Source: an uncultured Fibrobacteraceae bacterium
GTDB taxonomy: Bacteria; Krumholzibacteriota; Krumholzibacteriia; LZORAL124-64-63
Assembly: GCA_964399195.1 (NCBI GenBank)
Contig: CAYNPY010000006.1
Span: forward strand, 9,621-73,620
Direction: 5' to 3'
Length of the DNA: 64,000 nucleotides
In this document: positions 30,001-39,000 of the stretch, piece by piece
Layout of the letters: each line of letters begins with the position of its first letter
How positions within the stretch are numbered: position 1 is the first letter of the stretch
Program-made: the position numbers

Positions 30001-33000
30001 GCGTGGCTGCCGGATCCACGATGGTCGTGAGCGGCCCGGCGCTCGATACCTTCCTGAGCCGCGCCGGCATCGACGAGCACACGACTGTCGTCTTCACGGC
30101 CAGCACGACCGGCGGCGCGCGCGACCTGCGCGAGGCCACCCGCGGTTGGTGGACGCTGCGCTACTGGGGCTTCCCCAAGGAGCGGATCAAGGTCCTGCAA
30201 GGCGGCGACGCGGGCTGGACCGCGATCGAGGGCAACACCCTCGTGACCGAGGTCCCGACGATCACCCCGTCCGACTTCAGCATCCGTGACCTGGCCGCCA
30301 CCAGCGAGTTCCGCGGCGACCTGCGCACGTCGATCGGCGAGATGATCCGGGCCGTCGACGCCGTCAACAGCGGCGCGACGCCCGACGTCAAGTTCCTGGA
30401 CGTGCGCGGCGGCTCGCCGCTGCCTACCAGCAAGATGGGGCCGGCGCAGCTCGATTCCTGGAACCTCTACTACGTAGCCGGCACCTCCGGCACGCTGCTG
30501 CCGCTCGAGGATCTCGTGGCGCGCCTGGCCACCTTCGGCGTCACGGAAGCCACGCCGCTGACCTACGTCAACTGCCAGGGCGGCGTGAAGTGCACGATCC
30601 CGTTCTTCGTCCTCGACGGCATGCTCGGCTGGCCGGTGCAGTCGTACAACGGCTCGTGGGGCCAGTGGAGCGCCTACGGCACCGACACCATCGCGGACGC
30701 CTGGGAGACCGACCTCGTCACGCCCGGTACGACGACGTCGCGCAGCACGGGCACCTGGACGCCCGGCTCCGTGGCCATCGACCCGGTGGCGAACGCCGCC
30801 TACGGCCTCTCGGACCCGCGCGCCAACCAGATCGAGAACGAGGACGCGGCCTACTTCTCCAGCGGCGGCACGACGACCCCGCCCCCCGGCGGCGGCGGTG
30901 GCGGCGGCGGCAGCGGTTGCTGACGCGAACGGAATCTCCCTCCGCCCCTGCGCGGGGCGGTCACGAAACCAGCTTAAGGAGAAGTGACCCATGAATCGAA
31001 CCAGGAGCATCTTCGCGATCGCGGCCGTCGCCGCCCTGGTCGCGCTGGCGGCCCCGGCCCTGGCCGGACCCCAGTTCACCTTCGGCGACGACGACAAGGG
31101 ATCGTTCCAGATCGACGTCAAGAGCCAGTTCCAGATGACCATGCGCGACTACGACGTCGACAACGACGACGACGAGTCCGCCATGAACTTCAACTTCCGC
31201 CGCAACCGGCTGGCCTTCATGGGCGCCTGGGGCGAGAAGCTGAGCCTGTACGCGCAGACCGAATATGCCGAGGACGTGAACCTGGGCCTGTTCAGCCTGG
31301 CGGACGCGGACCAGGGCTCGGAGTTCCAGATGCTGGACGCCGTCGCCCGCATCGACCTCAGCGACGCGTTCAAGCTGAACGTGGGCAAGTTCAAGTACAA
31401 CCTGTCGCGCGAGAACCTGGAAGCCTGCGAGGATCCGCTGTCGCTGGACCGCTCGTTGTTCATCCGGGCTCCGCTGGTCACCACCCGCGACATGGGCGTC
31501 GCGATGTGGGGCAACCTGGCCGAGGGCAGGTTCCAGTACCGCCTGGACATGATGGAGGGCCGCAAGGCCGTCTCCGCGCTCGCGGCGCCGGCGAACAACT
31601 TCCGCTACAGCGCGCGGGCGCACCTGTCGCTGGGGGACTCGGAGACGGGTTACGGCTACAAGGGCACCTACCTGGGCCAGAAGAAGGTCATGACGATCGG
31701 CGCCGCGGTGCAGACCGAGCCCGAGGTCGTGTACCAGGACGTGCTGAACCGGACCGGCAAGCTGGACTACAACGCCTACACGGTGGACTTCTTCTACGAG
31801 CGCCCGGTGCAGGAGACCGGCGCCGTGACGCTGTCGGCCGCTTACGAGAACATCGACTTCGACGACGCCTACCTGGCCATGAATCCCGATCCGGGCGCGT
31901 GCGGCCTGAACGGCCAGAAGAACGGCTGGTACGCCAAGGCGGGCTACATGCTGCACACGCGTCCGCTGCAGTTCTTCGCGCGCTACGAGTCGTGGAAGTT
32001 CGCGTTGCTGAACAACGTCTACAACCAGCAGATCGACTGGCTGAGCTTCGGCGCGAACTACTTCATGATGGACAACGTGCTGAAGCTGACGGTCGAGTAC
32101 AGCGGCATGAGCTTCGACCAGAAGGGCGAGTTCGACGGGCTGACCACGAACGACAGCGGCACGCTGATCACGCAGTTGCAGATGGTGTTCTAGGCACCGG
32201 ATTCGTCGCTGAACCGGCCGGCGGGCTCCTGCGGGGGCCCGCCGGCCTCATCTTGCGTCCCGAGGCGTCGCCGGCCCGTCAGCGGCCGGTCGCCGCCGGG
32301 ACCGGCGCCGCGGGCGGCGTGACGGCGCGCAGCACGGCGTCGAGTTCGTCCGGCTCGAACTTGACCGGCAGCATGGTCGCCTGCGGCCGCGCGGCGCGCG
32401 GGTTGCGCAGCCAGCGCTCCAGCCGGGCCCGGTTCCAGGCGCTGTCGGCGGCCGCAGGATGAAAGGCGCCGGTCAGCCCCGAGAGATCAGGGCCGTCGCC
32501 GCCGGTCCCCTGCGGACCGTCGGGCGTCAGGGCCTGGTGGCAGCCGCCGCACAGGCGGGCGAAGGTGCGCAGGCTGTCGTCGCTGCCGGCGCGGAACCGC
32601 ACCTGATAGCGGGGCGAGCCGCCGAAGCGGTCCGCGTCGCGCAGCAGGACCGCGGCCAGCGTGTCGGCGGACAGCACGCCGAGGCCGAACGCCGGCATGG
32701 CCGCCGCGGGGTTGACCAGCGCCTCGCGCAGTTCCTGCTGCGTGCGCGGCCAGGCCACGGTGTCCAGGTCGATGGCCAGCCGCTCCCCCCGCCCCCCGGT
32801 CACGTGGCAGCGGCGGCAGCCCAGGCTGTCGCGCAGCGCCGCGGCCCGCGGCAGCACCGGCGATCCGGGCAGCGCCCATGCCGCCGCCGCGCCGGTCAGC
32901 AGCCGGTGATGGGCCAGGTCCGGCCGCGCGGCGCGCGCGTCGCCGCGGTGGCAGTCGACGCAGCCGCCGTGGCGCGCGTAGTGCGGCGCGTGGCACTGCA

Positions 33001-36000: not shown

Positions 36001-39000
36001 AGCCGACGGCGCGCGTCCCGATGTTGTGGCCGAAGAACGGCGCAAAGCGCAACTGGCGGCGGCCGCGGAAAGTGGCCACTTCCTCGTCGCGCGAGAGCGT
36101 GCCATCCGGCTCGATCACGTTGATGAACGTCTGGCAGCCAGGCGTGACCGTGCCGATGCGGCCCTTCGTGTCGACCGCCAGCGGGAACGGGTACAGGGCG
36201 CGCACGTCCTCGGTCTCGCTGAACGAGCCGATGGTGGCCCGGCCGGCCAGGTAATCCCAGCCGTACTCGCGTTTGTCGTAGGTGGTGTGGCAGCCGTAGC
36301 ACTGAACGACCGTGCGCGAGTGGCAGGCATGGCAGGCCATGCGCTCGTGGCCGACGATGGTGTGGGCCGCGGTGCCCGTGACGACCGGACTGCGCAGCAC
36401 GCGCCCGCTGCGCTTGAGCATCACGCCCACCTGCCCGCCGTCGTCGAAGACGTTGGCGTACGGCCGCCCCTTGCCCGTCAAGGCGGCGCGCGCGCCGGCG
36501 GGCCGCCGGCTTCCGTACTGGCGGGATTCGAGCGCGGGCGGCTCGTGTTCGCCCCAGGCGACGGCGAAACGCGGCGCCCGCGTCCCGCTGCCGTGGCAAT
36601 CCTCGCAGCCGATCTCCAGCTGCCCGTGCAGGCCGGCGGAGGCGTAGCCCTCGCCCATCACCTCGCGGGAGGTGTGGCAGTCGATGCACTCCATCCCTGC
36701 GGCGAAATGCACGTCGGGCGCGATGTGCGAGAAGTTGCGGCCGTCGCTGCCGGGCACCGGGCCGGGCCGGCCGTCCTTCGTGGGCACCAGGCCGTTGTTG
36801 CCGTCGTTGAGGCCCTGGTAGGCCAGCGCCACGCGGCCGCTGCGGTGGTGGCAGCGCAGGCAGGCCTCCATCGTCGGCAGGCCCTCCATCGCGTGGGTCC
36901 GGCTGTGCGGCGAACGGCCGCGCATCGTCGGGTCGCCGCCGCGGTAGGTCGCGTCCGCGGCCCAGGGGAAGTGGCAGGCCGCGCAGCCGGCGGCGTGCCC
37001 GGCGCCGTCGGCGGCATCGTTCTGCTTCGCGACATGGCAACGCGCGCAGAACTTCCGGTAGAGATCCCCGGCCAGGTTGTCCAGCGCGACCACCGAAGTG
37101 TGCGTGAGGGGCTCGCCGTCCAGGTCGTGCAGACGCGCATCGCGCGCCGCGTAGGTGACGCTGTCGCGCCGGCCCTCCCACGTCGCCTGGATCTGCGCGA
37201 TCATGCCCGCGTTGGTGTACATCTGGCTGCTGCGCATGCGCTCGAGCTGGTGCGGGTGGCACCCGCCGCAGCCGCGCTCCCAGCGCCCGGCGTACGAAGG
37301 ATCGGCCAGGCCGAAGATGCCGCGATGCGCGGCGTCCTTGTCGCGCGCGTCGGGGTTGCCGCCGTGGCAGGACACGCAGCCCGCGTGCGTCGGCGAGGCG
37401 GTCTCGATCCCCTCGTGGCAGTCGAGGCAGCGCTCGCGGGCCGACTCCGCCGACCGGGCCGCGCCGCCGCACGCCGCCAGCCGCGGCAGCAGGGCCGCCA
37501 GGGCCAGAAGCAGGATGATGCCGGCGGGCGCGCGCATGGCGCAAATATAGGAGGCGGGTGCTCGGGGAGCGCAGGGAAAACCGCTGTTCGGGATCTCGTA
37601 ATTTTGCGAATGGGAAGCAGTTGCCATGATTGCGCCGAGTGGTCTTGACTGTGATGGCGATTCTCATTGTCGGAACCGCGCACACGGTGACGAAGTCACG
37701 CGCTGGCGCCGGCGCAAGTGGCGACGGCGGCGCAACTGCACGCCGTGCCGTCGTTTGCCGCCCTCGGTACCGCGTGCTACCTTCGGGACCAGGAACCGTC
37801 GGCAAGGACGCGCCAGCGGCGCGGACCCACGAATCGACAGGGGGCATGCCATGAACAAGACGCGCGTCGGCCTGGTGCTGGTGCTGCTGGTCAGCCTGGT
37901 GATCGGGGTGCTGGCGGGCCTCGTCTTCCTGAGCCTGTTCAAGAGCCAGGTGCCCGCGGCGGCGCTGTCGGACTTCGTCAAGACGTCCTCGCCGGTCACG
38001 TTCGTCGGCACGGGGCTCGGCTTCGGCGTGGTCATCGCGCTGTGGTCCGTGCTGGTCGCCTGGGTCGCGCCGCGGTTCCGCGGCAAGGGACCGGACAGGC
38101 TGGCCTGAGGTCCCATGCACGAGATGACCATCGTCGCCGGCGTGCTGGAGATCGCCCACCGCCGGGCCCTGGACGCCGGCGCCGCGCGGATCAACTGCGT
38201 GACGCTGGAGGTGGGCAGGCTGGCGGGCGTCGAGGTCGAGGCGCTGCGCTTCTGCTTCGGCGCCGCGCGCGAGGGGCTGTCGGCGGGCGCCGAACTGGAG
38301 ATCCGCGAGGTGCCCGGCCGCGGCGCGTGCCCGGCCTGCGGCGCGGCGCGGGACGTGGACGAGCTGGCCGCGCTGTGCGACGGCTGCGGCGGCGTGCTGG
38401 AGATCAGCGGCGGGCGGGAACTGCGCGTGCTGGCGCTGAACGTCGATTGACGCGCGCCGACGGCGGCCGGCCCCGGAACGGAGGCCTCCCATGTGCGACA
38501 CCTGCGGCTGCGGCCAGCCCGCCGAAGACGTCACGATCCGCCGGCCGGGCGAGGCACACGCCCATGACCACGATCACGGGCACGGCCACCACCATCACCA
38601 CGATCACCACCGCCACGACCATCATCACCACCATCACGACGAACCGCGCGCGGGCAACCCGCGCGAGATCGCCGTGGCCGAGGCCGTGCTGGCCGGCAAC
38701 GACCGGCAGGCGCTGCTGAACCGCGGCTGGTTCGGCGGGCGCGGCGTGCTGGCGCTGAACCTGGTCTCCTCGCCGGGGGCCGGCAAGACGACGCTGCTGG
38801 AGCGCACCATCGCCGACCTGAAGGGCGAATGGCCCCTGTGCGTGATCGAGGGCGACCAGCGGACGACGCGGGACGCCGAGCGCATCGAGGCCGCCGGCGC
38901 GCCCGCCGTTCAGGTCAACACCGGCAAGGGCTGTCACCTGGACGCCGACATGGTCTGGCGGGCCTGCGCGAAGCTGCAGCCGGCGCCCGGTTCGGTGCTG

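Follow-up and report, generated by a model that had tools for sequence, protein, structure and literature searches.

Sequence analysis of an ExtMNOPQS/Cbc6-type gene module and its ext neighbours in a probable Krumholzibacteriota genome

The stretch of DNA analysed here, which we will call the window, comprises 64,000 nucleotides (nt) of contig CAYNPY010000006.1 (positions 9,621 to 73,620; GenBank assembly GCA_964399195.1), has a G+C content of 72%, and comes from a host that probably belongs to the Krumholzibacteriota. At 32279-37537 its minus strand carries an operon of six genes, which encode a dodecaheme lipoprotein cytochrome, an octaheme cytochrome, a Rieske protein, a cytochrome b split over two genes, and a tetraheme cytochrome (Table 1). 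Judged from its sequence, this operon is a genuine copy of the already named ExtMNOPQS (Cbc6) quinol-oxidising complex of Geobacter, and every defining feature of that family for which we tested is present.

The six-gene operon and its family

The original prediction placed six open reading frames (ORFs) on the minus strand, and all six are found where it put them, with CxxCH heme motif counts of 12, 8, 0, 0, 0, and 4 in the order M-N-O-P-Q-S. The other motifs that it listed are there as well (the LAAC lipobox, TRRRFL, CTHLGC/CPCHGS, H77-x13-H91, and H177-x14-H192), and the overlaps between successive genes, recomputed from the coordinates, are 50, 46, 4, 4, and 25 nt. On Logan contig L081 (SRR31730567), which encodes an identical ExtM, an independent gene caller arrived at the same boundaries for five of the six genes; for extS it chose a start 17 codons downstream of the TTG at 33124. 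We regard the TTG as the better start codon because it restores a signal peptide, and because the N-terminus that it opens, MAAAR(S/A)VL, is kept in two sister genomes (L001 and L002). Synteny of the operon was compared over the best 80 of 330 ExtM loci; since 12 CxxCH motifs occur in 79/80 ExtM and four in 54/54 ExtS proteins, the heme motifs should be taken as family features and not as chance.

Profile searches against the NCBIfam models for Ext proteins, which had been proposed as a check, place four of the products above their cutoffs: ExtM (NF040943, 899.7 bits against 800, over profile positions 13-599 of 599), ExtN (NF040967, 469.4 bits against 200, with only profile positions 56-415 aligned), ExtQ (NF040970, 162.9 bits against 150), and ExtS (NF040971, 220.4 bits against 100). 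The similarity of the cytochromes to Ext proteins, on which the prediction had staked itself, is therefore there, with ExtM, ExtN, and ExtS all exceeding equivalog cutoffs. The top match of ExtP is likewise its own family model, NF040969, at 225.1 bits (the cytochrome b6 model gives 173), which is under the curated cutoff of 290. A bona fide ExtP from Citrifermentans bremense (Geobacterales), taken as a control, also reaches only 227.7 bits, so the cutoff shuts out genuine Geobacterales ExtP and a score below it is no argument against membership.

The Rieske protein of the window has no match to the NCBIfam model named for ExtO (NF040968, 'FeS_ExtO'). The ExtN of Citrifermentans (L068) matches this model over its full length at 736 bits, and the Citrifermentans Rieske protein does not match it at all. 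This control marks NF040968 as a mislabelled duplicate of the ExtN model, hence there is no valid NCBIfam model for ExtO, and annotation pipelines may use NF040968 to call ExtN 'ExtO' and leave the real Rieske subunit unnamed. ExtO was assigned by position and by identity, which is 38-86% to the Rieske gene in the same slot of other ExtM loci; with the nearest relatives of the window set aside, it is 38-55%. In 66 loci extO lies between extN and extP, as it does in the window, and the boxes TRRRFL, CTHLGC, and CPCHGSRF are kept in 66 homologs. When the products are placed by ranking hidden Markov model (HMM) and PDB scores, all six group with Ext orthologs and not with canonical bc1/b6f subunits. 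The collinearity with Geobacter extM-N-O-P-Q-S that the original prediction described is thus borne out by both profile scores and conserved gene order.

The protein collection holds 868 relatives of ExtM (E <= 1e-20), 56-83% identical and drawn from several phyla, and NCBI already names ExtM in metagenome-assembled genomes (MAGs) of Vicinamibacteria, Thermoanaerobaculia, Syntrophales, and Desulfuromonadaceae. Scanning one genome per GTDB species gave at least 330 species with ExtM loci, again in several phyla; the M-N-O-P-Q-S order is kept in about 55 of the 80 species loci and spans Geobacterales, Syntrophales, Acidobacteriota, Eisenbacteria, and Krumholzibacteriia. The closest genomes (L001 and L002) are JADJQR010000001, an unclassified 'bacterium' MAG whose ExtM is 90% identical, and JAYRFB010000122 (Candidatus Krumholzibacteriia, 89%). 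Their genes stand in the same order as those of the window, hypB< hypA< M>N>O>P>Q>S> I< H< LysR> ACR3<, with hypBA and ACR3 included, and their proteins are 83-97% identical to those of the window. It is these relatives that make a host from the Krumholzibacteriota probable; an origin from Anaeromyxobacter, which the G+C content of 72% had suggested, was rejected because the nearest genomes are MAGs either labelled Krumholzibacteriia or unclassified.

Among the multiheme cytochromes, the sequence marks ExtN (8 hemes) as secreted and ExtM (12 hemes) as a lipoprotein, and profile cross-matches reveal a homologous C-terminal region in both. ExtN has 8 hemes in all homologs from Acidobacteriota, Eisenbacteria, and Krumholzibacteriia, and 9-10 in Geobacterales and Syntrophales; compared with the 10-heme form of Geobacterales, the window protein is two hemes short at its N-terminus, and the 8-heme form is common to all non-Desulfobacterota homologs. 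An AlphaFold2 model of ExtM built on a 61-sequence alignment has a mean predicted local distance difference test (pLDDT) score of 56, and a Foldseek search of this low-confidence model against the PDB returned nothing below E = 0.9.

The best solved relative of ExtP is cytochrome b6 (139 bits, compared with 98 for 8smr and 84 for proteobacterial bc1). Alignment to b6 gives ExtP four transmembrane (TM) helices and sets H77, H91, H177, and H192, which are essentially invariant among 60 homologs, against the b6 heme ligands. Cys26 (in FCLGG) aligns with b6 Cys35, the covalent heme c_i site, and is the predicted attachment position for that heme; FCLGG or LCLGG is found in 55/60 ExtP homologs. ExtQ has three hydrophobic stretches, which we read as TM helices, and aligns to cytochrome b residues 208-318. 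Its KSAWF stands opposite KPEWY, which gives a Qo motif of SAWF in place of PEWY, and SAWF recurs in 56/58 ExtQ proteins. This motif has no carboxylate and is not one of the six major Qo motifs of Kao & Hunte, who tie carboxylate-less motifs such as APWY to complexes proposed to run in reverse.

None of the six products matched a cytochrome c1 or f family in the NCBIfam and Pfam profile searches, and ExtS has no relative in the PDB at E <= 0.01. ExtS combines two N-terminal hemes with a conserved distal His (bis-His type) and two class-I domains with conserved Met143 and Met251 (His/Met); because of these class-I domains and their methionines it would be the natural acceptor for the Rieske protein, and we consider it a candidate replacement for cytochrome c1/f. 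Compared with bc1/b6f complexes as a whole, the module has the Rieske boxes and the four His and lacks the PEWY/PDWY Qo motif and a c1/f subunit. The marks of the b6 subfamily, namely a split cytochrome b, H-x14-H on helix D, and a Cys for heme c_i, are all present. The module thus resembles a b6f/Firmicutes-type Rieske/b complex in its working, yet it is not canonical.

The other ext genes and their surroundings

The original prediction described the operon as lacking extJKL and took these genes to encode outer-membrane conduit cytochromes. Both statements should be corrected. An extKL gene and an extJ-like gene lie 16 kb away in the same window (Table 1); ExtJ is devoid of heme motifs, and ExtKL corresponds to MccSep, a selenoenzyme of the periplasm (PMC13510729) that is a terminal reductase and not an outer-membrane conduit cytochrome. 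The lipoprotein encoded beside the ExtI porin is also a rhodanese and not the cytochrome that an Mtr/Pcc porin-cytochrome conduit would have there. Since every ext gene is inside the window, 'without extJKL' is true only of the slot between extI and extM. Even there it is not unusual, for extI abuts extM in 12 of the 59 informative ExtM loci (in Eisenbacteria, Desulfuromonadaceae, and Geomonas sp. Red32), and in a further 22 of the 59 extM is preceded directly by neither KL nor I.

The extJ-like gene was picked out from all window ORFs by an HMM built from 17 ExtJ sequences (E = 6.4e-10). It also matches NF040942 (E = 1.7e-8), at 34.7 bits and therefore under the cutoff of 52.5, and is kept in the related metagenomic contigs L082, L084, and L087. 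For extKL, tblastn with the Geomonas proteins aligns ExtK at 14908-15795 (58% identity, E = 7e-118) and ExtL at 15856-16173 (54% identity, E = 1e-31). The two parts share one frame and are split by a TGA at 15796-15798, in the context HGIPDG-U-PTPNRLVLSV. An in-frame TGA is present in 29/29 homologous loci, and the approximately 30 nt that follow it (AACCGACUGGUnCUGUCGGU) are nearly invariant, even where a change would be synonymous, in phyla that differ widely in G+C content. A hairpin at 15808-15828 with a 7-bp stem and a 7-nt loop, 16 nt from the UGA, has the geometry of a bacterial selenocysteine insertion sequence (SECIS). Its folding energy by itself is not significant at the G+C content of the window (z = 0.73), and we base the SECIS call on geometry and cross-phylum nucleotide conservation, not on folding energy. 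Rfam and tRNA scans of the window found no tRNA-Sec (selenocysteine tRNA) or known RNA element, and selA, selB, and selD were not seen in its 64 kb.

The window ExtKL aligns end to end with the MccSep structures (PDB 9wt8/9wt9; 593 bits) and keeps the five CxxCH motifs, R83, H122, C239, U325, and K372. MccSep is a periplasmic, tetrameric, pentaheme selenoenzyme that reduces polysulfide and, less well, selenite (PMC13510729, 2026); selenite reduction was seen in vitro, and the catalytic centre consists of a His/Cys-ligated heme (C239) beside Sec325. The enzyme is induced by elemental sulfur (S0) and required for S0 respiration of G. sulfurreducens. The same paper states that its electron donor is unidentified and does not mention the Rieske/cytochrome b genes from gsu2935, immediately downstream.

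As predicted, extH and extI lie tail to tail with the six-gene operon, and 85 nt separate extI from extS. This spacer holds an inverted repeat (Table 1) that is a probable bidirectional terminator; a scan for sigma-70 promoter and intrinsic-terminator consensus sequences made no calls, and the hairpin escaped it because the T-run is missing. ExtH has three conserved Cys columns and a Gly/Ser tail that ends in GGGGGGSGC, with a C-terminal SGC or GGC in 33/33 homologs; proteins of the ExtJ family likewise end in ...GC. SoxY bears a C-terminal carrier cysteine on a 'swinging arm'. By analogy, the SoxY-like C-terminal cysteines of ExtH and ExtJ suggest covalent carriage of sulfur or selenium to MccSep. 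The divergent LysR gene is a described element of ext clusters (PMC6148476), and a GTTTG-N14-CAAAC box in the LysR-extH gap (29574-29597) is kept in L001 and L002.

Upstream of extM (37538-37627), about 75-90 nt are AT-richer and strongly kept in L001 and L002, in the form ...GCAACTGCTTCCCATTCGCAAAATTACG...CCTCCTATATTTGCGCC-ATG. The element TATATTTG lies 4 nt ahead of the extM ATG, and no Shine-Dalgarno sequence is found there; the stretch may be the promoter of a leaderless or short-leader transcript. An exact 11-mer, GCCGTCGTTTG, upstream of both extH and extM was considered as a shared motif and rejected as chance, the extM copy not being kept in L001/L002. Variant layouts of extI also occur. 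In the MAG CG_4_9_14_3_um_filter_65_15 (L005/L093) the order is LysR< extI' KL> LysR< S<Q<P<O<N< / M> I< H< LysR>, with extM split from extN and two ExtI paralogs (extI' being a 33% paralog), and several Acidobacteriota loci have a distant ExtI-like porin (31-34% identical) upstream of KL.

The order Rrf2-cysK-extJ-extKL recurs in the close metagenomic relatives L082, L084, and L087, and in L084 extKL is followed by <LysR extH> within 74 nt. Because the 12.3-kb block of ars and molybdenum cofactor (Moco) genes is absent at that same junction, it looks like an insertion outside the ext system, and probably is one. The convergent orientation of MNOPQS relative to HI is a lineage-specific inversion. 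Within the block, the porin at 18589-19884 was considered as an ExtI paralog and showed no similarity. The region 16200-18540 has an unusually high G+C content (77.5% in the 16-18 kb bin) and candidate ORFs on both strands, none with an NCBIfam or Pfam match except for a weak PepSY_TM hit for 17269-18537 (minus strand).

Other genes of the window should be recorded as well. Between extM and hypA, and co-oriented with hypA, a plus-strand gene at 37850-38108 encodes a two-helix membrane protein of 85 amino acids (aa) without a family match; it was also called in L081. The hypA-B-F-C-D-E genes (38115-44304) lie beside the operon and are kept there in L001 and L002, and at 58101-62632 are a hydrogenase maturation protease and subunits like those of sulfhydrogenase-type (group 3) [NiFe] hydrogenases (beta/gamma) or AsrAB, all sub-cutoff. 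A 531-aa protein at 44250-45845 (minus strand) clearly carries the domain of thiol-activated (cholesterol-dependent) cytolysins (PF01289, E = 2.8e-42), and it does so in a genome that appears to be Krumholzibacteriota-like and of environmental origin. A Ser/Thr kinase gene (47618-50428; 936 aa, TolB-like beta-propeller repeats) adjoins that of a multicopper oxidase (50504-52714, minus strand; PhsA/CueO-like), whose C-terminal domain is like FlgD/T9SS-sorting domains. At 757-2379 (minus strand) is a 5'-nucleotidase/SoxB-family gene with sub-threshold matches to thiosulfohydrolase SoxB (120 bits) and 'UshA-like (seleno)protein' (85 bits).

Table 1. Coordinates of the ext genes and associated features in the 64,000-nt window
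Feature	Position	Strand	Description
extM	35669-37537	-	622-aa dodecaheme lipoprotein cytochrome; lipobox LAAC, Cys23; NF040943
extN	34522-35718	-	398-aa octaheme cytochrome, signal peptide; NF040967
extO	34160-34567	-	135-aa Tat-exported Rieske 2Fe-2S protein; PF00355, E = 6e-14
extP	33543-34163	-	206-aa b6-type split cytochrome b; NF040969
extQ	33100-33546	-	148-aa subunit-IV/cytochrome b C-terminal equivalent; NF040970
extS	32279-33124	-	281-aa tetraheme cytochrome; NF040971; PF13442 and PF00034 domains
Inverted repeat	32216-32247		perfect 11-bp GC-rich repeat, GGCCGGCGGGC / GCCCGCCGGCC; read directly from sequence
extI	30991-32193	+	outer-membrane porin; NF040900, 580.7 bits (cutoff 150); PF07396 Porin_O_P
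extH	29664-30923	+	rhodanese-like lipoprotein, catalytic Cys304; NF040901, 301.2 bits (cutoff 200)
LysR-family regulator	28484-29503	-	NF041036 'multiheme cytochrome-associated LysR', 285.5 bits; divergent from extH
Rrf2-family regulator	12744-13205	+	TIGR00738, 103 bits
Cysteine synthase CysK	13269-14222	+	TIGR01139, 440.6 bits; upstream of and co-oriented with extJ-extKL
extJ-like	14395-14721	+	small exported protein, C-terminus ...AGC; directly upstream of extKL
extKL/MccSep	14821-16179	+	pentaheme selenoprotein polysulfide/selenite reductase; NF040886, 435.5 (cutoff 250) and 92.6 bits
12.3-kb block	16180-28483		unassigned ORFs, porin-like, ars, and Moco genes between extKL and LysR-extHI
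ArsR	19909-20292		in 12.3-kb block
Permease	20288-21589		in 12.3-kb block
ArsE-like thioredoxin	21590-21874		in 12.3-kb block
Thioredoxin	21792-22403		in 12.3-kb block
ArsG/DsbD-like	22404-23123		in 12.3-kb block
ArsF-like	23059-23562		in 12.3-kb block
ACR3	26875-27972		in 12.3-kb block
MoeA, MoaB/MOSC, MoaC, low-molecular-weight phosphatase (ArsC-type)			in 12.3-kb block

Possible function of the complex

A bc-type core that would feed periplasmic multiheme cytochromes, and not c1 or an oxidase, was the original interpretation of the operon, and it fits the anatomy described above. It is also what the field presumes of 'Cbc6' (PMC13591261), a 2026 review that describes the physiological role of Cbc6 as unknown. 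We lean slightly towards an account in which menaquinol is oxidised by the module and its electrons move by way of ExtS, ExtN, and ExtM to acceptors in the periplasm, chief among them MccSep. Menaquinol would be oxidised at the Qo site, and one electron would travel from the Rieske protein to ExtS and then by ExtN/ExtM to the acceptors, for which the selenoenzyme ExtKL (MccSep), encoded 16 kb away, is the prime candidate. The ExtI porin would allow substrate to enter across the outer membrane, and the C-terminal cysteines of ExtH (the rhodanese) and ExtJ would be where these proteins handle sulfur or selenium. The tie to MccSep is drawn from gene linkage only: MccSep is the best candidate acceptor because 29 of the 46 informative ExtKL-centred metagenomic loci carry ExtM, immediately downstream in 26.

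Several points weigh against this account. Menaquinol has a potential of about -75 mV and polysulfide one of about -260 mV, so that electrons would have to flow uphill between them, and a low-potential Rieske centre is placed at about +120 mV (PMC4122944); with these potentials a conventional energy-conserving Q cycle cannot drive polysulfide reduction. The carboxylate-less SAWF Qo motif leaves reverse or non-canonical operation open. Selenite (about +0.2 V) is an easy acceptor for menaquinol electrons. Of the 59 informative ExtM-centred loci, no more than 23 have KL within +/-10 kb, and the tie of the module to MccSep is therefore not obligate. In the window extJKL is apparently under Rrf2 and extHI under LysR, that is, under different regulators, and comparison of the extH and extM promoters gave no regulatory motif common to both. 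Mutant phenotypes exist for extI and extKL only, in G. sulfurreducens only (PMC5877670, PMC13510729), and none for MNOPQS; deletion of extI impairs reduction of selenite and tellurite in Geobacter (PMC5877670).

In a more specific form of the account, which we hold to be speculative and rather unlikely, ExtMNOPQS would be the physiological donor of MccSep by a non-canonical mechanism (SAWF Qo motif, heme c_i), with the ExtH/ExtJ cysteines as SoxY-like swinging arms. Menaquinol electrons would then reach the much lower-potential polysulfide, perhaps by drawing on proton-motive force or through an unusual division of the two quinol electrons, and the swinging arms would present sulfur or selenium chains to MccSep.

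Other explanations should be kept in mind. The complex could be a general-purpose Cbc-type quinol:periplasmic-cytochrome oxidoreductase that serves many acceptors (Fe(III), Mn(IV), electrodes, and metalloids) and has no dedicated tie to MccSep, which we consider possible but doubtful. The 36/59 ExtM loci with no KL within +/-10 kb favour it, as do the 22 with neither KL nor extI directly upstream, the 2026 review that puts Cbc6 among redundant quinol-cytochrome c oxidoreductases (PMC13591261), and Geobacter proteomics in which, as far as the citation in PMC5877670 reports it, ExtN and ExtQ were more abundant on Fe(III) oxide. ExtM, however, adjoins ExtKL in 63% of ExtKL loci, the module is nearly always accompanied by extH, extI, and LysR in loci with flanks of sufficient length, and an ExtM that is 56-83% identical across phyla shows a constraint unusual in a promiscuous wire, which suggests that its partners are specific. 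Detoxification of metalloids (selenite, tellurite, or arsenic), as opposed to respiration, is very improbable in our judgement, even though the NCBIfam name is 'selenite/tellurite reduction operon', the extI deletion phenotype in Geobacter (PMC5877670) and the in vitro reduction of selenite by MccSep would suit it, cysK beside extJKL could trap sulfide or selenide, and the gap from extKL to LysR holds ArsR, ACR3, an ArsC-type phosphatase, and ArsE/F/G-like genes. The ars/Moco block is missing at the same junction in L084 and looks like an insertion, a 24-heme Rieske/b complex is a costly device, and MccSep, for which polysulfide is the better substrate, is required for growth on S0.

The complex might also run in reverse, with low-potential periplasmic donors (sulfide or polysulfide through a backward MccSep, or H2 by way of cytochromes) feeding ExtM/N/S and then menaquinone. 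Electron flow from sulfide to menaquinone is thermodynamically downhill, and hydrogenase maturation and sulfhydrogenase-like genes lie beside the locus, although the hyp genes keep this position only among the nearest relatives of the window. The presence of SAWF in 56/58 ExtQ proteins recalls the carboxylate-less APWY that Kao & Hunte tie to a proposed reversed Q cycle, though such operation is itself uncharacterised for any carboxylate-less complex (Kao & Hunte), and the MccSep authors see a relation to the reverse of TsdA/SoxAX chemistry. With MccSep of G. sulfurreducens being S0-induced and required for reductive S0 respiration, and with Rieske disulfide cysteines and His/Met domains in ExtS that look like an ordinary high-potential chain, we rate reverse operation as improbable. 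Hardly credible is the idea that this is the organism's ordinary respiratory bc complex, delivering electrons by a soluble cytochrome c to a terminal oxidase: it can point to a Rieske protein, a split cytochrome b, and class-I cytochrome c domains, but there is no cytochrome c1/f homolog and there are no oxidase genes within 64 kb, SAWF stands where PEWY is expected, the core has translational overlaps with two multiheme cytochromes, and the products are Ext orthologs with Ext synteny.

Comparison with known systems

The closest known system is ExtMNOPQS of Geobacter sulfurreducens, also called Cbc6 or CbcMNOPQR (GSU2935-GSU2930), which is part of extHIJKLMNOPQS; its six proteins and their order are those of the window, and its genes likewise overlap. 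The Geobacter ext cluster and the window also have in common the ExtH rhodanese, the ExtI porin, the divergent LysR, ExtJ, and the selenoprotein ExtKL. They differ in layout: Geobacter has one collinear H-I-J-KL-M-N-O-P-Q-S array, whereas in the window cysK-J-KL, H-I, and an inverted M-S that converges on I are set apart, and the 12.3-kb ars/Moco block between KL and LysR is found in the window only. ExtN has 8 hemes in the window and 10 in Geobacter (the two N-terminal ones are gone), the ExtS of the window is without a lipobox, and the host is probably a member of the Krumholzibacteriota and not of the Desulfobacterota, to which Geobacter belongs. Novelty is confined to the host lineage, the arrangement with its split and inversion, an ExtN with 8 hemes (as in Acidobacteriota and Eisenbacteria), and the cysK/Rrf2 context of extJKL; the role of Cbc6 is no more testable through the window than through the Geobacter model.

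With b6f and Firmicutes bc complexes the module shares a cytochrome b split into b6 and subunit IV, the H-x13-H/H-x14-H ligand spacing, the heme c_i Cys, and a Rieske protein with both cluster boxes and the disulfide cysteines. Unlike them, it has no cytochrome f/c1, SAWF in place of PEWY/PDWY, a very small Rieske protein (135 aa), three multiheme c-type cytochromes (24 hemes), and no photosystem or oxidase context. Of these features, SAWF, the heme c_i Cys, and the lack of c1/f are family-wide oddities that bear on the energetics of the module. In anammox and other Rieske/b complexes the core is also genetically joined to multiheme cytochromes and unusual energetics have been proposed (PMC12954380); the likeness is one of analogy only, and the HAO-like octaheme and NAD(P)-oxidoreductase subunits of the anammox complexes are absent from the window module.

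MccSep (PDB 9wt8/9wt9), finally, should be seen as a probable partner of the module and not as the module itself; in the window it is unlinked from MNOPQS and lies behind Rrf2-cysK. Our survey makes ExtMNOPQS the commonest neighbour of the MccSep polysulfide/selenite reductase and, if the link between the two is true, it would supply the missing part of a widespread pathway by which elemental sulfur and selenium are respired.

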